Positions 17,934 through 28,637 of a DNA stretch of 64,000 nt are shown one piece after another. The notes under the pieces were generated by a model, which did not search any database, was not told where the DNA came from, and was given only the letters and a program-made list of their open reading frames with translations. Each line of letters starts with the position of its first letter. Positions within the stretch are counted from its first letter, which is position 1. The stretch spans positions 170,364 to 234,363 of the forward strand of contig JBAYUN010000001.1 in NCBI GenBank assembly GCA_041675085.1, given 5' to 3'. Position numbers and translations under genes: made by a program. The DNA comes from Minisyncoccota bacterium. Its GTDB lineage: Bacteria > Patescibacteriota > Minisyncoccia > Phycocordibacterales > UBA9973.

Positions 17934-19019
17934 CTATATCCCATCTTCTTTTAGTTTTTCTATATATTCTCTAGATTTTTTAGAGATTTTATTTGGCATT
18001 TTTATATTTAATTGAATCAAGATATCTCCTCTTTTACCTTTGTTCGGTACACCTTTGCCTTTCACTCTCAAGATTTCATTTATACCAACACCTTCAGGTA
18101 TAGTCACTTCGACTTTACCGTCGAGAGTCTCGAGTTCGTATTTCATACCGAGTAATGCATCCGAGAGTTTAATGTTTAAGTCTGTAGTGAGATCAAATCC
18201 TTCTCTTTTAAAAATAGGATGCCTAGAGACATTAATCTTGATATACAGATCTCCAGTAGTACCTTTTGATACAGCTTCACCCATGCCTGTCATACGGATC
18301 ATTTCGCCGTCGCGAATACCTGCGGGTACATTGATAGTGATTTCTTCTTCTTTGCGGAGGACTCCTTTACCGTGACATTTCTCACAAACTTCTTTTGGAA
18401 CTTGTCCAGATCCAGTACAAGTCTCACACATTTTTGTAGTAGAAATAGTTCCGAGTATTGTACGTTTTGCTTCGTGGATTTTACCTTGACCGTTACAAGT
18501 TTTACAAGTCTCCATCTTGGTCCCAGCTTTTGCTCCGGTCGCTTTACAAGTCTCACAACTAGAAGTCTTAGTGATCAAGACTTTGCGAGTAATGCCGAAT
18601 ACCGCCTCAGAGAAACTGATATTCATCTCAGTAGAGATATCTCGTCCGCGACGAGTTTGAGTGCGTCCTCCGCCTCCACCAAAGAAATCAGAAAAGATAT
18701 CATTCAAGTCGAATTCCATTCCACCATTTTGACCAAAGCCAGAAAAGTCGAAACCTTCAAAGCCGCCAAAACCGCCACCTTGAGGACCGTACCCTGCTCC
18801 GCCCATATTTGCATAGTTTGAGCCGAATTGATCGTATTTAGCGCGTTTTTGGTCATCAGAAAGAGTCTGGTAAGCTTCATTTACCTCTTTGAATTTCTTT
18901 TCATCTCCCTCTTTTTTGTCAGGATGATATTTATGAGCTAGTTTATAAAAAGCCTTTTTGATTTCGTCTTTTGAGGCACTTTTATTAACCCCTAATGTTT
19001 CATAATAATCTTTATTCAT
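17934..19019 (-). CDS. dnaJ: chaperone DnaJ
   Basis: J-domain [11 protein letters not shown]...HPDK, G/F-rich region, four CxxCxGxG zinc-finger repeats; start moved to MNKDYY (track ORF 13 codons longer). Confidence 0.85.
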
Positions 19020-19060
19020 AAAGGATATAATAGCAAATTTATTCAGTTTTTTCAACAAAC

Positions 19061-20563
19061 CTAAATCATAGGCTCAGCCTCGGTTTCTTTTGTTTCTTTT
19101 TGATTTGAGAGATTTTGTTTTTCTTCTTCTCTTTCTTTTCTGTCTCCTTCTTCTGTACGTCCGGCACCTTTTATCGCAGCTTTTTCTTCAGCACTACGAA
19201 TGATAGTAGACTCTTCTTCTTGGATCAATCTCTGAGCGTCACCTTTTGAGATAGCGTATTTACGACGTGAAGCGGCTAGTATCTCATCTCGATACGAAGT
19301 ATGAGTAGGAGGTAGTATACGTAAAGTCTCTGCTGAGAAAGGGTCATAACTCTCTCCGTCGATAGTCATCTTGATATAGAATTCTCCTACAGCAAGGTTA
19401 ATCATATCTTTGACTCCGAAAAGAGGATCGAATTCAGGTTTTAAACGAGTCGCGTCTTCTCCTCCTACACGGAAAGAAATAATAGATCCGACGTTACCTA
19501 GGATAGATTGATAAATCTTTGGTTGGATCTGACCTACGTATTGGTGAGCCATGGTGAGGTTCAATCCGTATTTACGAGCCTCTGATAGAATATTTTCAAA
19601 AGTTTGAGTCACGACGTTTTGGAACTCGTCGACATAAATATAAAAATCTTTACGATCTTTCTCTAGGATATGGGCGCGCTCCATACCGGCTTGCTTGATC
19701 TTGGTCAAGAACATAGATCCAAAGAAAGAAGAATTCTCTTCACCGATTTTACCCTTAGAAAGATTTATCAAAATAATTTTCTGCTCGTTCATCAAAGTAC
19801 TAATATCTATTTTATTTTCTTTTTGACCGAAAATATTGCGGAGCAGTGGGTCAGACAAGAATTGCCCGAGTTTATTCACGAGAGGGATGATCGCGTCAGT
19901 ATCAAATTTCTCAGACCAATCCGCGAATTCGATAGCGAAGAATCTTTTAACCATATCGTCTTGGATGTATTCCACGACTTTCTGACGATAATTTCTATCA
20001 GTAAGCATAGATATCATTCCACGCATCGTCGCATACGGATAGTCTAGAAGCGCCAAACAAGTAAAACGAAAAACGTGCTCCAAACGAGGAGTCCAGTTGG
20101 CACCGAATTGCTTTTGGAAAACTTCAATCAAACCTTGAGTTAATTGAAATTTGAACATAGGGTCGACGTTCGCCAGAGGATTGAAAGAAGCTGGGAAATT
20201 CACGTCAGACGGATCAATAATACAAACGTCTTCAATACGTTCTTTTGGAATATAATCTAGCATTGAGTCTATCACATCTCCGTGAGGATCGATAAGACAA
20301 AGCCCGTGCCCATAAGTGATATCTTGACGCAAGAAAAGCTCGAGGAGTTTAGTCTTACCTACTCCAGACTTCCCTATGATATACAAGTGACGACGACGGT
20401 CGACTCTCTTAAAACCAAAAATGAATTTCTTCTCTTCCAGAGATGCAACGTAATTAGTCCGCCCAATAAAAGAAACCTCCTCAGGTTTTACCTTTCCATA
20501 GACTGGAAGCTCTGGTGGTGGTGGACCGTATTTAATTATTTGAACTCGATTTGGTTTCACCAT
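19061..20563 (-). CDS. TrwB/TraD/VirD4-like (type IV coupling protein family) P-loop ATPase, 500 aa
   Basis: Walker [11 protein letters not shown] followed by CLIDPHGD (compare TrwB GATGTGKS...VIVDPNGD), Walker [10 protein letters not shown], then [13 protein letters not shown] block as in T4CP C-terminal half. Confidence 0.55.
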
Positions 20564-21409: not shown

Positions 21410-21703
21410 TTATTTACTTTTAGACTCAAGTTTTTCTACACGTGTAGTAAGATTATCAATTCTTCTTTCATAAGAAATACCATCGCCATTTAAAACAGTA
21501 ATACTATTTTTGAATTCTTTGTGTTGTTCGTTGTTATTTTTTATTTCTTTTAAAATTACATCTAAAACACCTTCAACTCTTTCGAAAGATTTAGCTACAG
21601 AACGCATATTGCTTTCAGAATTATTTTCAAAATTCTTTAAAGTTTCTAAAAATAATTTTTCAGTTACGTGTTTTTCAGTTGTTTTTGGAGTTATTTTCTT
21701 CAT
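21410..21703 (-). CDS. hypothetical coiled-coil protein (97 aa)
   Basis: Lys/Glu-rich, heptad-like; no domain recognised. Confidence 0.35.
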   Translation of the reverse strand: MKKITPKTTEKHVTEKLFLETLKNFENNSESNMRSVAKSFERVEGVLDVILKEIKNNNEQHKEFKNSITVLNGDGISYERRIDNLTTRVEKLESKSK

Positions 21704-21743: not shown

Positions 21744-23450
21744 CTAATACACCTCACTCTGATAACATTTCTCACAATAAACTATCTCTGGTCTCTCTGG
21801 AGCATAACTTGTTTCAAATTCATTATTGCACCCTTCTTTCATGCAAGATCGATGCCAGAGTTTAAATGGATTTCTAAAAAATAGCCTTTCATTCAACCTG
21901 CAATAGAAACAACTTCTCGGTAAAGGTAAATTCATTATTTTATAAAATTTAAATTCGTCCGAAATAACTTTAAAATTTCTTTTACAGTCTATACACTCAA
22001 AAACATTATCAATAAAACTTTCATCTACATTTTCCAAAGAAATAGGGACACCTGTCGACTCAATGGTTTGCTTGCCTGTAGTTTTTTGAATATTGTATTG
22101 AAATTTATAATTTTTATCTAAAATTTCTTTTTCATTTAAAGGGAAAAAATAATTAGCTATAGTTTCATTATATCCAAAATAAGATAATTCAATAGGAAAA
22201 AATTCACCGTATCTATATACGTTTCCTTTTTTATCTACATAAGGCATCTCATTCATATGATTCTTTATCTTCTCCACCATCTCAAAATATTCTTCTTTTT
22301 TATACTGCTTGTTAAAAATACAATAACTTTTATTCTTTAAACCAACACAACCAAATACATACTTACAATTATGGCAATGCATATTGTATTCCAAAAATTG
22401 TGATTTAACTGAAAATAAACCAAATTTATTATTACTGGAATGATCTAGTACTATACCTTCATAACCAAGCTCATGCTCTCCAGAAGTTGTAATATCATAA
22501 CAATCTAAATTTTTACCTCCCTGTTGAATATATTTACAATTTTCTATCTTATCACCAATAAAACAATTTTGAGAATTTTTAGAATTACTTAATAGATCTC
22601 CTGTAACATTTAATGATTGAATTATATGAGCATATTTTCTTGGATATTTTAAAATAAATTCTTTAAATTCTTTCTTTGCTCTTTGCCTACCTTCATAAGT
22701 ATTAAGTTCATAAGTAGACAAAATTTTTTCATATTCTTCTTTAGTGTACTTTTTATTTTTAAAGCAATACTTCTCTCCTCGTAAACCTATACACATAAAA
22801 CAATCTGAACAATTACGACAATCATACAAAAAATCGGAATCTATACAAGATACACAAAAATATGAGCTTTTTAATTTATAACTATGTGAGCAATCTAAAC
22901 AATCATACATCCATTCTGAAGATTCTAAAATACAAGTACAATCTGTCATATTTTTACCGGCTAAAACCATATATCCATAAGAAACATTTTCTATATGCCA
23001 AGAACAAAAAGTCATATAACAGTTTTTAGAAAACCAAGTATCACCAGTATATTCACATTTAATGCTAGCTATGTTGTTATCGTTAACTAAAGCTATGTGA
23101 GGAATTTTATAAATTAATTTATTTAACTGAGAAAAGAAGTTTTCAGAAAAATTATAATCTTTTCCAGATTCAATTCCGTCCCATTTATCACTCCACCAAC
23201 ATTTATTACAATAAATAATTATATTAGATTCAGGAGAATACATTGATACTACGTTCATGTCACAAGAATCACATTTACGATTATATAAAGAAAAATCATT
23301 CCTCCAAGAAGCTCTTCTTTGGAACCTACATTCCGGACAAAAAGTTGGTGGTGGGACTTTTACCTTTTCATAGAAGGAAAAGTCATCACTTTCTATCGTA
23401 AAGTCATTTTGGCAATTCTGGCAGGTTTTCTTTTCGGATTTATATTCCAT
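21744..23450 (-). CDS. cysteine-rich multi-zinc-ribbon protein (568 aa), function unknown
   Basis: More than 50 Cys; N- and C-terminal modules of the form CxxC..F.I...F.FY.K....P..C..CR...R; internal repeats C..C.GL.G.KYC.FNK.Y.KEEY. Confidence 0.55.
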   Translation of the reverse strand: MEYKSEKKTCQNCQNDFTIESDDFSFYEKVKVPPPTFCPECRFQRRASWRNDFSLYNRKCDSCDMNVVSMYSPESNIIIYCNKCWWSDKWDGIESGKDYNFSENFFSQLNKLIYKIPHIALVNDNNIASIKCEYTGDTWFSKNCYMTFCSWHIENVSYGYMVLAGKNMTDCTCILESSEWMYDCLDCSHSYKLKSSYFCVSCIDSDFLYDCRNCSDCFMCIGLRGEKYCFKNKKYTKEEYEKILSTYELNTYEGRQRAKKEFKEFILKYPRKYAHIIQSLNVTGDLLSNSKNSQNCFIGDKIENCKYIQQGGKNLDCYDITTSGEHELGYEGIVLDHSSNNKFGLFSVKSQFLEYNMHCHNCKYVFGCVGLKNKSYCIFNKQYKKEEYFEMVEKIKNHMNEMPYVDKKGNVYRYGEFFPIELSYFGYNETIANYFFPLNEKEILDKNYKFQYNIQKTTGKQTIESTGVPISLENVDESFIDNVFECIDCKRNFKVISDEFKFYKIMNLPLPRSCFYCRLNERLFFRNPFKLWHRSCMKEGCNNEFETSYAPERPEIVYCEKCYQSEVY

Positions 23451-23454
23451 AATT

Positions 23455-25872
23455 CTACTCTCTATCTTCTAATAATCTACGCAAAACTTCTTCGGGAATT
23501 TCTTGTATGTTGCCTTCTGTTAATGGTGGTGGTGTGCCTGTTTTCTCTTTTACTGGTTCAGATTTTATTTCTTGCCCGCCTGCAACATTATGCATAGGAT
23601 TTCGGGCAAGTTTAATCTCTTCTTTTTTCTCTTCTCTTATTTCTTGCCTTGTTTCTATTTTTATTTCTTCTTTTATTTCTGACTTGATTGGTTCTGTTTT
23701 AATTTCAGGTTTTACTTGAGATTCTGTTTTGATTTGAGTATTTACGGGTGGATTTATTTTATTCCCGCCTGCAGAAGCTACTACTTCAGCATTTCGGGCA
23801 GGTTCTATTTTATCCCCGCCTGTAGCATTTCGGGCAGGGGTCACGATAATATCATCTACTTTTTCAGAAATCATATTCCTAAAACTATTCATTAAATCAG
23901 AACTCGCAGAGCGGTCTTTTGAATTTGTTGGATTTTCAATTTTGGCAACTTTTAAATCACTCAAAGAAATACCTTTGTTTATATCGTCATTATTTTTATC
24001 AGGAATGTTTAATCTAGGTTCGGGGATTTTTTCTTTAACTTCTTCTATATCCTTATTATGCAAGGCTATATCCAAGATTTCTTTTAGTCCTAAATTCAAA
24101 CCACTGATTTTAGGTTTTTCGGGTCTGATATGAATAGGGTTCTTTGGTATAACTTTCTCGACAATATTATTTACAAAATTTTTCTTCACAGGTGTAAAAT
24201 TATTTTTAGGAAAATCTGATTTATTTTGAGAATTAAAATTATTGTTTACAACAGGCTCAGATCTATTTTCTTTTTTTACATTAGAATTACTGTCTCCTCC
24301 AGCAAACTCTATACCTAAATCTGCAAGAGGTTTGAAAAATCTAGTCTCATCTTTTTTTAACTGATCAGGAGATACACGAATAGGTTTTATCTCGCCTGCT
24401 TTTATTTTTACAATACAGTCTTTACAGTACACAGCTCGTCCTGGTTCAGGCTTGAAAGGTACAGTAGTCATAGTGCCACAATTCGAACAAACAGTTTCAA
24501 ATTTCTCCCCGTTCGGATTGATAGCTTTGTTATTTTCGCGCGCATTACCGATATCACCGAGCGCCATACCACTCCAATCATTAATCTCTTTTTCGATGTC
24601 CTCTTTGGTACGACAATATAGCTCACGTGAGGATTCGACTACTCTTCTTTCAATATCAAGATTACCACCTTTGACCAAAGGCGCGATAGTCTTTGAAGAA
24701 AAAGGACGAGAAGTAATACCATCTATCATGAGTTTGAGATAAATCTTGTAGTTAGGTAAGTTCACGATATCCTCCGGAGTGAATTCAGGAGCAAATTCTT
24801 TTTCTAAGAAATCCGCATCGTCGGCTCCCACACGAAACACAATCATAGTCCCAACGTTACCGAAAATAGAGTCACGCATAGCACTAGACTCTTTGGTAAC
24901 CAATTGAGCTGTATATTGGTGAGCTACAGTTAGGTTCAAGCGGTATTTACGAGCCTCAGATAGAATCGAGGCAAAAGAGTCGGTGACGAAGTTTTGGAAC
25001 TCGTCGACATATAGATAAAAATCTTTACGTTCTTCTTCAGGAATACGCACACGCTCCATGGCAGCAAGCTGAATCTTGGTAATAATCATACCTCCGAGGA
25101 GCTTAGAGTTGTCTTCTCCAATACGTCCTTTGGATACGTTTACTAAGAAAATCTTGCCTTCATTCATCATGTCAAAAATATTGATAGTACTTTTTGACTG
25201 ACCAACAATATTACGAATAACAGAAGTCGAAAGGAATTGACCAACTTTGTTTTGAATCGGAGCGATAGCTTCATTACGGAATTTATCTTGCCAAGCTTCA
25301 TACTCATGAATCCAAAAAGCTTTGATCACAGGATCTTTCAAATTATTAATTATCTTTTGACGATAGTCTTTGTCTACCAACATACGAGGAATACCAAGGA
25401 GAGTAGTACCAGGAGTATCTAGCAAAGCTAGAATACAATTATTCAAAATATATTCCATACGAGCAGACCAAGCATTCGCCCAGATTTTCGTGAAAATACC
25501 CATAAGCCCCGACGCTACTAAGTGCTTGTATTTGGAATCTACAAGTTCAAGAACATTAAAACCAATATGATACTCAGTATCCGCCGGATTGAAATAAACT
25601 ACGTCTTTAAGTCTATGTTCTGGAATAGCTTGCAAAACTCCTTCGACGAGCTCACCGTGAGGGTCGACTACACACACACCTTCACCATTTAGAATATTCT
25701 GCATGATCATGTTGGACATGAGCACAGATTTACCAGTACCGGATTTTCCAAGAATATAAATATGCTGACGACGGTCGCGACGCTTGATACCAAAAAGAGT
25801 ATTCTTGTCTCTAAACGTAGAATACCCGATATAGGTCAAATCTTTATTTGGTGGCAATTGAGGCAAATCCAT
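23455..25872 (-). CDS. TrwB/VirD4-like P-loop ATPase with central zinc ribbon and long repetitive K/E/P-rich C-terminal tail (805 aa)
   Basis: YILGKSGTGKSVL...VCVVDPHGE, Walker B LYVDEFQNF, ARKYRLNLTVAHQ; zinc ribbon CSNCG...VPFKPEPGRAVYCKDC; tail with ARN-containing repeats. Confidence 0.55.
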   Translation of the reverse strand: MDLPQLPPNKDLTYIGYSTFRDKNTLFGIKRRDRRQHIYILGKSGTGKSVLMSNMIMQNILNGEGVCVVDPHGELVEGVLQAIPEHRLKDVVYFNPADTEYHIGFNVLELVDSKYKHLVASGLMGIFTKIWANAWSARMEYILNNCILALLDTPGTTLLGIPRMLVDKDYRQKIINNLKDPVIKAFWIHEYEAWQDKFRNEAIAPIQNKVGQFLSTSVIRNIVGQSKSTINIFDMMNEGKIFLVNVSKGRIGEDNSKLLGGMIITKIQLAAMERVRIPEEERKDFYLYVDEFQNFVTDSFASILSEARKYRLNLTVAHQYTAQLVTKESSAMRDSIFGNVGTMIVFRVGADDADFLEKEFAPEFTPEDIVNLPNYKIYLKLMIDGITSRPFSSKTIAPLVKGGNLDIERRVVESSRELYCRTKEDIEKEINDWSGMALGDIGNARENNKAINPNGEKFETVCSNCGTMTTVPFKPEPGRAVYCKDCIVKIKAGEIKPIRVSPDQLKKDETRFFKPLADLGIEFAGGDSNSNVKKENRSEPVVNNNFNSQNKSDFPKNNFTPVKKNFVNNIVEKVIPKNPIHIRPEKPKISGLNLGLKEILDIALHNKDIEEVKEKIPEPRLNIPDKNNDDINKGISLSDLKVAKIENPTNSKDRSASSDLMNSFRNMISEKVDDIIVTPARNATGGDKIEPARNAEVVASAGGNKINPPVNTQIKTESQVKPEIKTEPIKSEIKEEIKIETRQEIREEKKEEIKLARNPMHNVAGGQEIKSEPVKEKTGTPPPLTEGNIQEIPEEVLRRLLEDRE

Positions 25873-27881: not shown

Positions 27882-28020
27882 ATTTTTTATTTTAATTAAT
27901 TTATAATAATTTAAATTTATAATTTTTATAAAAAAAATTTTTCTAGAGCCTTATCTTTTATGACTTAACGACGAAAAATTTCTTTTTGTAAAAATTTAAA
28001 ATAATCTATATTTTACTTGT

Positions 28021-28036
28021 TTTTCGCGACCGCGAA
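28021..28036. promoter_or_regulatory. palindrome TTTCGCG-ACC-GCGAAA overlapping -35 region of a TTGTATAAT promoter
   Basis: tttcgcgaccgcgaaa followed 7 nt later by ttgtataat (extended -10) upstream of the PaaX-like gene; divergent from dnaK. Confidence 0.35.
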
Positions 28037-28121
28037 ATACTTGTATAATCTAGTATATATGATAAGATATATCTATGTCAACCCCACTTCGCTTAAGCTT
28101 CGCGGGGCAAAGCAAAAATAT

Positions 28122-28637
28122 ATGCAAAATCAAGACCATTCCAAAAAAATCCTTAAAAAACTAGCAGAAAAGAGAGCTATTTCTATAGAGTCATTAAAAG
28201 ACAAAGAAGACAAGAAAGAGAAATATGCCCTCTCTAGAAGCCTTAAAAACCTCGTAAACAGCGGTTTTGCTCGTATTCATGACTCAGGCAACCAAGACTA
28301 CATAAGCCTCACCAAAGAAGGCAAAAAGAAAGTGCACAGCCTTAACCTCGAGAACGAAAATACCCTAGTGAATACATCTTGGGACGGCTATTGGAGAATG
28401 GTACTTTTAGATCTACCAGAAACCAGAAAAAACGAACGTGAATCTCTACGCTATTTATTAAAAAAAGCAGGGTTTGTATGTCTGAAGAATTCAGTCTGGA
28501 TTTCTCCCCTACCATACGAATATTTATTTGAAAATATTAAAAAAGATTTAGGCTTAACTACTGAGATGATAATCCTAACCACAAACAAAATAGACGCAGA
28601 AACTCAAAAAACTATTTTTGAGAATTTTAAGAATTAA
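28122..28637 (+). CDS. PaaX-family-like transcriptional regulator (short form)
   Basis: Start moved to MQNQDHSKK because track N-terminus overlaps the promoter; wHTH YALSRSLKNLVNSGFARI..ISLTKEGKK then WDGYWRMVLLDLPE...GFVCLKNSVWISP (compare E. coli PaaX WDGKWLLLL...GFGALAPSLMASP). Confidence 0.55.
   Translation: MQNQDHSKKILKKLAEKRAISIESLKDKEDKKEKYALSRSLKNLVNSGFARIHDSGNQDYISLTKEGKKKVHSLNLENENTLVNTSWDGYWRMVLLDLPETRKNERESLRYLLKKAGFVCLKNSVWISPLPYEYLFENIKKDLGLTTEMIILTTNKIDAETQKTIFENFKN

Follow-up and report, generated by a model that had tools for sequence, protein, structure and literature searches.

The 64,000-nt stretch of a Minisyncoccota bacterium genome analyzed here (contig JBAYUN010000001.1; hereafter, the window) raises the question of what a cysteine-rich protein, encoded between two translocase-like ATPases, is built of and what it might be doing there. 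The gene in question is the following:

21744..23450, minus strand: whole gene of the cysteine-rich protein, 568 amino acids (aa), ATG start, span including the stop codon

In structural and evolutionary terms we are highly confident of our description of the protein as a whole. From its N-terminus it runs through two paired fingers (1 and 2), a first solenoid (B1), helices, a second solenoid (B2), a conserved core and a second pair of fingers (3 and 4). The gene encodes a real, strongly conserved protein: orthologs are 55-60% identical, similar to RsmE in the same loci (56-58%), and the open reading frame (ORF) is neither absent nor pseudogenized in relatives, as an initial annotation made from the sequence alone had considered, being intact and full length in thousands of them. 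NCBI lists a 100% match to the window protein under the name 'hypothetical protein WC011_01170, Candidatus Paceibacterota'. By composition it contains 37 Cys, 10 His and 12 CxxC motifs, and family members have 23-45 Cys each. The protein is soluble, with no signal peptide or transmembrane (TM) segment (highest 19-residue Kyte-Doolittle window, 0.69), and a hydrophobic segment, taken as hydropathy above 1.6 in such windows, occurs in none of 166 family members. Because it lacks a signal peptide or TM segment and carries four-cysteine (Cys4) sites, the protein is probably cytoplasmic. It is mildly acidic (mean net charge of the whole protein about -4.6, isoelectric point 6.3), and of all its blocks only the region of finger 3 is clearly basic (mean net charge +4.8), those of fingers 1, 2 and 4 being neutral to acidic.

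The two ends of the protein are homologous modules of ~81 aa (residues 5-85 and 481-563), each a pair of treble-clef fingers. The N-terminal end aligns to the C-terminal one (aa 1-101 against 471-568) with 36% identity over 83 aa (E = 3e-19, BLASTP), and profiles of the two modules from 39 orthologs match with a probability of 98.9 over 81 columns (E = 2.8e-17, hhalign). The initial annotation had quoted a module at both termini, and the two strings stand as written at aa 10-46 and aa 486-522; the duplication was thus seen correctly, and the module was cut short, comprising ~81 aa with two Cys4 sites rather than ~37 aa with one. The four fingers are:

23295..23438, minus strand: Zn1, aa 5-52, ligands C10, C13, C38 and C41, followed by an Arg-rich helix (CPECRxQRR); similar to PF13451 (zf_Tbcl)
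23175..23294, minus strand: Zn2, aa 53-92, C60-x2-C63-x17-C81-x2-C84, a GATA-like spacing; similar to PF23477/TIGR04272
21870..22010, minus strand: Zn3, aa 481-527, ligands C486, C489, C514 and C517; homologous to Zn1
21747..21869, minus strand: Zn4, aa 528-568, C536-x4-C541-x17-C559-x2-C562; homologous to Zn2 and to a finger of the neighboring ATPase

All 16 of the terminal cysteines are invariant in the 39 orthologs, which speaks against the low-complexity drift that had been raised as a possibility. In 165 non-identical members of the family their conservation ranges from 64% to 100%: 100% in Zn1, 99-100% in Zn4, 90-99% in Zn3 and 64-86% in Zn2. The ligands of Zn2, the weakest site, are lost in an all-or-none manner (106 members retain CCCC and 58 miss at least three), which is the signature of a true metal site; the Zn3 ligands are CCCC in 149 of the 165. 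In a mean-field direct coupling analysis (DCA) of 547 family sequences (effective number 500), the top couplings connect zinc ligands: C63-C84, C63-C81, C60-C81, C489-C517 and C489-C514. Metal binding, which the initial annotation had proposed, is well supported at the four terminal sites by this invariance, by the co-evolution of ligands in Zn2 and Zn3 (the two sites that vary) and by the all-or-none loss. With four fingers that each carry a Cys4 site, at least four structural Zn are therefore expected per chain.

The type of finger could be predicted by AlphaFold2 (AF2), for which two models were made: the first from a 39-sequence alignment (predicted local distance difference test, pLDDT, 77, with the interior below 60), and the second from an alignment of 138 sequences found in a homolog search with the family profile (pLDDT 87.9; predicted template modeling score, pTM, 0.89). 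Counting the sites in the model gives four terminal Cys4 sites in a predicted treble-clef layout. In Zn1, a hairpin of residues 6-9 and 16-19 is modeled around C10xxC13 and C38xxC41 opens the helix 39-48, with the same layout in Zn3; in all four sites the model puts the first Cys pair into the turn of a beta-hairpin and has a helix begin at the second. Such a predicted geometry is not that of a classical zinc ribbon, where both ligand pairs lie on hairpin knuckles and a three-stranded sheet is formed, and the zinc-ribbon type given in the initial annotation has to be replaced by a putative treble clef.

Scores against named finger families stayed below the thresholds of those families. PF13451 scored 15.9 bits on the window protein (E = 0.012, aa 9-48; gathering threshold 24 bits) and reached E < 0.01 in 13 of the 39 orthologs (best, 3.7e-4), and two family members carry a precomputed assignment to it; Zn1 is a distant relative, not a scored member, of PF13451. 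For PF23477 the window protein gave 14.4 and 14.3 bits against a 27-bit cutoff, and an NCBIfam scan gave no TIGR04272 match. The CxxC-x17-CxxC spacing of these families is exact in Zn2, with Zn4 carrying the variant Cx4C-x17-CxxC and its last Cys lying only six residues from the end of the protein. The LIM profile fell just below its cutoff on the C-terminal module (22.6 against 22.9 bits). Beyond the ligands, the arginines R42, R45, R46, R518 and R522 are conserved. On a Nomurabacteria contig, a 582-aa paralog directly upstream of the ortholog (L001:6245-7993) has lost the cysteines of its third finger (ECEITGKPF...PLPTIHPTVR) and retains the motif F.I..SE.EFY..M.IPLP; the helix and Pro motif of the third finger may matter independently of zinc.

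Between the terminal modules lies an interior that is itself duplicated:

22740..23066, minus strand: B1, the first solenoid unit, aa 129-237, with about nine 12-residue coils of the motif x-[KSE]-N-x-x-[CS]-[YF]
22587..22739, minus strand: helical linker between B1 and B2, aa 238-288, with AF2 helices at 237-247 and 252-266
22296..22586, minus strand: B2, the second solenoid unit, aa 289-385, homologous to B1
22131..22295, minus strand: helix and conserved core, aa 386-440, with the family-wide motif MPYxDxxGxxYxYGEFFPxELSPFxYNETxAxxxFP
22011..22130, minus strand: acidic variable segment, aa 441-480, mean net charge -4.4, acidic fraction 0.24

Repeat units of ~105 aa (aa 140-244 and 289-392) share 38% identity (E = 9e-14, BLASTP), and the profiles of B1 and B2 match with a probability of 99 (E = 2e-18, hhalign). 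B1 ends in C211-x2-C214-x2-C217-x2-C220 and GLRxxxYxFKNxxY, and B2 in C359, C362, C368, C377 and GLKNKSYCIFNKQY. The interior motif C..C.GL...YC.FNK.Y.KEEY, of which at least two copies had been noticed at the outset, occurs in exactly two (aa 217-240 and 365-388), each closing one of the ~105-aa repeats.

Three signals coincide to show that the interior comprises two narrow solenoids, each with roughly eight to nine turns of 12 residues: the autocorrelation at a lag of 12 residues (conservation, 0.59 in B1 and 0.55 in B2; hydropathy, 0.42-0.45), the DCA couplings at a separation of 12, and the strand pattern of the AF2 model, in which a short strand recurs at intervals of about 6 residues. 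At separation 12 the mean coupling was 0.55 in B1 and 0.43 in B2 (at most 0.1 in control regions), and 27 of the 60 top interior couplings lay at this separation, inside B1 and B2.

Each turn of the interior has one ladder position at which a cysteine may stand. Conservation of Cys at these positions is 30-70%, and the residues most often found in its place are Ser, Val or Leu; because of this conservation and exchange pattern, most of the interior cysteines are structural, forming a buried Cys/Ser ladder rather than metal ligands. The picture of repeated cysteine-rich modules in the initial annotation thus stands for the Cys4 modules at both ends and for the duplicated interior, and most of the interior CxxC/DC pairs that it counted are instead ladder positions. 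Two groups of residues stand out as candidate extra metal sites, C211/C214/C217/C220 (89-96% conserved for the first three and 80% for C220, in 165 members) and C359/C368/C377; we treat both as unproven because their ligands are lost piecemeal.

Outside the fingers, the core at aa 386-440 has the highest conservation (2.76 bits; pLDDT 91-98): all of 138 sequences have Y404, G415, P419, Y427 and N428, and at least 90% keep E416, S423 and E429. The linker at aa 238-288 is the least conserved block (1.73 bits) and is coupled in the DCA with B1, with the variable segment and with Zn3. Among the 60 top long-range couplings, 16 join Zn1, Zn2 or the linker to the core and further ones reach B2, which indicates that the core probably serves as a docking surface for the N-terminal fingers. 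These couplings of the N-terminal module to the core and B2, consistent with the high pTM, indicate that the chain forms one compact body, with the N-terminal fingers packed on the core and B2, rather than beads on a string.

The protein belongs to a large family. A search of 5.8 billion proteins found at least 6,835 relatives (90%-identity clusters), essentially all of them full length (550-620 aa), and when representatives at 50% identity were searched with a profile, 4,439 clusters matched, of which 1,885 at E < 1e-30; the source names of these relatives are all 'hypothetical' or 'uncharacterized'. When each GTDB species was represented by a single genome, the search confirmed 583 matching stretches; family loci are counted below among the best 80, or among 86 fetched loci for the gene arrays and the 97-aa ORF. 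The titles of 78 of the 80 were of Patescibacteria type or of an unnamed bacterium, among them Nomura-, Lipton-, Brenner-, Staskawicz-, Giovannoni- and Moraniibacteria, Paceibacterota and Minisyncoccia. By every named match seen, the family is confined to Patescibacteria of the Paceibacteria/Parcubacteria type. Two family loci carry other labels, one in a Bacteroidales metagenome-assembled genome (MAG; L040, a 1.8-kb contig) and one in a Burkholderiales MAG (L076, a 268-kb contig); mis-binning appears a better account of both than horizontal transfer, in the case of L076 because it bears a typical Paceibacteria rsmE-ATPase-dnaJ block.

The window contains a single copy of the family. Profile searches of the 86 loci found at least two full-length copies in 57, mostly head to tail on one strand, the largest arrays having nine copies (on a Brennerbacteria contig) and eight (on another contig); arrays of 5-9 full-length paralogs are packed into ~13.7 kb (L055:1-13731 and L080:1-13677; also L016, L017, L058 and L081). 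The paralogs of such 5-9-copy arrays are 29-54% identical to one another, and for 130 of 135 copies the nearest counterpart lies in another genome (median best identity 43% within the array and 60% outside). Recent expansion, or a fast-evolving repertoire of variable effectors, was therefore rejected as the origin of the arrays; the paralogs are ancient and long kept side by side, and are presumably sub-functionalized.

Which genes, then, accompany the family? On the minus strand (except where marked +), the order in the window is grpE, a paaX-like gene (+), dnaK, an 805-aa ATPase, the cysteine-rich gene, a 97-aa ORF, rsmE (+), a 500-aa ATPase and dnaJ. The neighbors relevant here are:

23455..25872, minus strand: 805-aa VirD4/TraD-like P-loop ATPase, upstream of the cysteine-rich gene, 4 nt from it and on the same strand
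21410..21703, minus strand: 97-aa coiled-coil ORF, directly downstream of the cysteine-rich gene
19061..20563, minus strand: 500-aa VirD4/TraD-like ATPase without a finger, downstream past the 97-aa ORF and the convergent rsmE
17934-19058, minus strand by the gene order given above: dnaJ, the true DnaJ of the window

The two flanking genes had been called translocase-like ATPases in the initial annotation, and both indeed encode P-loop ATPases of the VirD4/TraD type that pass Pfam thresholds. The 805-aa protein scored 48.3 bits for TrwB_AAD_bind (cutoff 20.5), 42.3 for T4SS-DNA_transf (20.1), 47.5 for zf_Tbcl_2 (27) and 52.4 for TIGR04272 (36), the latter two reflecting a CxxC-x17-CxxC finger C-terminal to the ATPase part (aa 457-487, nt 24412-24504), which is followed by a long low-complexity tail. 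The 500-aa protein scored 30 bits for TrwB_AAD_bind, 25.8 for T4SS-DNA_transf and 24.9 for TraG-D_C. Neither has a TM anchor (highest hydropathy windows, 1.13 and 0.92, respectively). Both soluble ATPases are inserted in the grpE-dnaK-dnaJ-rsmE block. The 500-aa ATPase is 79-86% identical between genomes, at least matching DnaK (79-82%; full-length matches in the same loci), which points to an essential function under tight constraint that has nothing to do with conjugation. The 97-aa ORF gave no family match above threshold in Pfam or NCBIfam and no tblastn match in the 86 loci, and is not a conserved partner.

Several further observations were made on this block. Both ATPases match phrog_5156, a phage family, over the C-terminal half of its 824-position profile (E = 3.5e-64 for the 805-aa and 3e-52 for the 500-aa protein), and PADLOC mad8 (1e-16 and 6e-13). 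Inside the tail of the 805-aa ATPase gene lie three copies of a GC-rich element of ~35-45 nt (23575-23607, 23764-23799 and ~23815-23840), CCCGCCTGYA...ATTTCGGGC, the first of which can form a TTGCCCG/CGGGCAA stem; the copies are in frame, encoding ARNATGG, ARNAEVVASAGG and ARNPMHNVAGG, and no further copy occurs in the 64 kb. At 28017-28637 on the plus strand, divergent between grpE and dnaK, a 206-aa protein with a PaaX_M domain (76.8 bits) and a winged-helix region is encoded; hrcA occupies the corresponding place in the Bacillus-type operon, and the PaaX_M protein may be a regulator of the chaperone block.

The initial annotation had taken the cysteine-rich protein for a partner of the ATPases from its placement alone. 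The neighborhood does recur: among 167 ORFs directly adjoining family members in the 80 genomes, the ATPase was the only recurrent family (14 loci), with the next neighbor clusters (a ~260-aa protein, a polytopic membrane protein and others) reaching at most six loci each. An ATPase gene lay within 6 kb in 22 of the 80 family loci, against ~3-4% expected from about two such genes per genome, an expectation that is our own estimate from the number of type IV coupling protein (T4CP) homologs per genome in PMC12102498. The 19 adjacencies to an ATPase involve different paralog subfamilies, and a link specific to the ortholog group of the window protein was rejected, since the ATPase-adjacent partners are from 30% to 56% identical to the window protein. 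In the reverse direction, taking 80 metagenomic ATPase loci as starting points, a family member was found nearby in 9 of the 11 loci whose ATPase shares 60% identity or more with the 805-aa one of the window.

The two proteins also have a domain in common. Fifteen ATPase fingers above thresholds matched Zn2 with a probability of 96.4 (E = 1.2e-9) and Zn4 with 93 (E = 3.3e-7; hhalign), as compared with less than 7 for Zn1 and Zn3, used as controls. Outside the family, hidden Markov models of Zn2 and Zn4 matched only these ATPases in ~1.1 Mb of six-frame translation. A search of the ATPase finger against PDB also returned WRAP-T repeat proteins, which we rejected as an artefact of summed repeats.

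We tentatively favor, as a whole model, a role for the cysteine-rich protein as a zinc-stabilized recognition or adaptor subunit working with the neighboring soluble VirD4/TraD-like ATPases. Its solenoid surface, specific to each paralog, would select a client, either protein or nucleic acid; in the lineage of the window, it would act with the adjoining soluble and apparently exapted ring ATPases; and the CxxC-x17-CxxC finger common to both proteins would be a docking or ligand-binding element. An extended form of this model, which strikes us as doubtful, would make the family a hitherto unknown kind of component of cytoplasmic machines, peculiar to Paceibacteria and with a fold of its own. 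This fold of four treble clefs and two 12-residue solenoids, possibly with a metal in the last coil bound by the CxxCxxCxxC run, would provide interchangeable specificity subunits for exapted VirD4/TraD-like ring ATPases in the dnaK-dnaJ operon, the whole forming a lineage-specific system for the remodeling or translocation of proteins or nucleic acids.

A number of observations weigh against the adaptor model. The linkage to the ATPase is real but clade-limited, so that the inferred partnership stands for a neighborhood that recurs and falls short of universality: 58 of the 80 family loci lack an ATPase gene within 6 kb, and no family member was found near ATPase homologs of less than 60% identity (0/13 loci). 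Since 39 of 41 distant ATPases nevertheless keep the finger, the ATPase does not need the cysteine-rich family. The synteny could be inherited gene order, and a small zinc finger in common does not prove interaction. Register slips in the alignment could have raised part of the DCA signal at the repeat period, and the cysteine geometry and exposed surfaces are model predictions. Finally, no characterized homolog or structure-based match points to any function.

Other readings account for parts of the same evidence. Rather unlikely, in our judgment, is a stand-alone RNA- or DNA-binding factor acting independently of the ATPase, in which fingers with Arg-rich helices contact nucleic acid and paralogs target different RNAs or sites. 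The helices CPECRxQRRxxWRN and CxxCRxxxRxxxRN with their conserved arginines fit it, as do the positive charge of the Zn3 block, the GATA-like spacing, the weak sequence matches of the ATPase finger in PDB to the DNA-binding fingers of GATA-1 and AreA (E = 0.02-0.03), and the ancient, stably kept paralogs, as expected of distinct fixed targets. However, the protein as a whole is acidic and the other three finger blocks are neutral to acidic, so that its charge does not favor the nucleic-acid binding suggested in the initial annotation; Zn2 and Zn4 lack the basic tail of GATA fingers, the chain stopping six residues past the last Cys; the DCA packs the N-terminal fingers on the core rather than leaving them free; and the GATA and LIM similarities are non-significant, to be taken as leads. 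The same packing bears on an enzymatic role, which we consider unlikely. There, the near-invariant, loop-rich stretch at aa 403-437 (YGEFFPxExSxFxYNE) would form an active site with the solenoid and paralogs would differ in substrate, in keeping with five invariant residues in the most conserved non-finger block and with an ortholog conservation resembling that of the housekeeping enzyme RsmE. Yet the DCA suggests a structural account of this conservation, the core being a packing surface for Zn1 and Zn2, and neither a recognizable catalytic motif nor similarity to enzyme families in Pfam, NCBIfam or PDB was found.

Homologous modules at both ends, a beta-solenoid body and several paralogs co-encoded on one strand would also suit a structural protein, whose head and tail modules associate into homo- or hetero-filaments with paralogs as alternative subunits. 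We find this improbable, as the DCA and AF2 both indicate that the terminal modules fold back onto their own chain, and as bactofilins or other cytoskeletal families showed no similarity in the Pfam scan or in Foldseek against PDB. More improbable still is a secreted effector, delivered to a host cell by the coupling-protein-like ATPases from arrays that serve as an effector repertoire. VirD4-like genes next to tandem paralogs in host-dependent bacteria invite this reading, but the anchor that fixes true coupling proteins in the membrane is missing from the ATPases, and T4CP homologs in Patescibacteria are rarely near virB4 (148 of 5,713) and may be exapted (PMC12102498). Furthermore, the paralogs are old and evolve under a constraint like that of housekeeping genes, not rapidly, and a compact multi-zinc fold would probably be a poor secretion substrate. 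We give as little credence to a metal-storage, redox or Fe-S protein working through its interior cysteines, such as the CxxCxxCxxC run at 211-220. The number of cysteines per protein and the conservation of C211, C214 and C217 speak for it. Against it, the interior cysteines exchange with Ser, Val or Leu without correlation between partners, losses at 211-220 are piecemeal, unlike the all-or-none pattern of Zn2, and no Fe-S family was matched. The 4Fe-4S ferredoxin type in particular was rejected, as the run lacks xxxCP and Fer4 gave no match.

A large part of bacterial diversity belongs to the Patescibacteria, whose genomes of ~1 Mb or less are rich in unexplained genes. The family is conspicuous among these, with thousands of members and housekeeping-level conservation, and as many as nine copies in tandem, each 1.7 kb long, take up ~15 kb of such a genome, yet it is absent from every curated library, solved structure and publication searched. 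The present analysis turns a hypothetical protein into a domain map with testable metal sites, provides, through co-evolution, AlphaFold-independent evidence for an unusual narrow solenoid, and names a concrete candidate partner in the orphan VirD4-like ATPases. If the link to the ATPases is true, both gene families would be explained at once; if it is false, the family would still be a good target for structure determination and a new Pfam entry.

How does the protein compare with known systems? As the initial annotation had anticipated, its architecture is not a recognized one. Pfam, NCBIfam, PADLOC and PHROGs returned nothing above threshold for the whole protein or for four sub-segments of it, a sequence search of PDB gave no match with the single sequence or a 138-sequence profile, and Foldseek of the pTM 0.89 model against PDB gave no hit with E < 1. 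Against viral models, Foldseek found only matches of 42-66 aa to small 'putative zinc-ribbon domain proteins' (rmsd 1.5 Å over 42 aa); 2.9 million viral contigs held a single marginal match at a contig edge, and the literature searched contained no description of the family. A DnaJ-type cysteine-rich domain was rejected, with CxxCxGxG repeats absent from the sequence and no DnaJ_CXXCXGXG match. So was the left-handed beta-helix (LpxA, GlmU, gamma-carbonic anhydrase), whose Foldseek hits with the first model had E > 1 and, except for GlmU (2v0h; E = 6.6), disappeared with the better one; the Hexapep families of Pfam gave no match, and the dominant period is 12, not 6 or 18. The likeness to the LpxA and GlmU solenoids, and to that of the Tenebrio antifreeze protein, a narrow beta-solenoid with 12 residues per turn, consists of a 12-residue repeat, one conserved small residue (Cys/Ser) and short strands. 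Unlike the antifreeze protein, the cysteine-rich protein lacks the TCT motif and paired disulfide cysteines.

The closer relationships are those of the fingers. PF13451, a 'probable treble clef domain' whose members carry the database name 'zinc-ribbon domain protein' and for which we know of no function, resembles Zn1 and Zn3 in its two CxxC pairs, the F/Y-rich helix between them and the CR..R helix after the second pair; here, by contrast, the domain is one part of a 568-aa architecture of four fingers and two solenoids undescribed in Pfam. Zn2 and Zn4 share spacing and profile homology with PF23477 (zf_Tbcl_2)/TIGR04272, lacking the basic tail that follows the ATPase finger; the C-x2-C-x17-C-x2-C spacing of GATA fingers recurs in Zn2, in a bacterial and cytoplasmic context. 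Coupling proteins are often encoded beside their substrates, and the flanking ATPases pass TrwB_AAD_bind and T4SS-DNA_transf as do the type IV coupling proteins VirD4, TraD and TrwB, differing from these in having no TM anchor; compared with the substrates and adaptors of type IV coupling, the cysteine-rich protein has no relaxase or known effector domain. In our assessment the family falls outside all kinds described so far, with two small domains that are distantly related to named, uncharacterized zinc-finger families.

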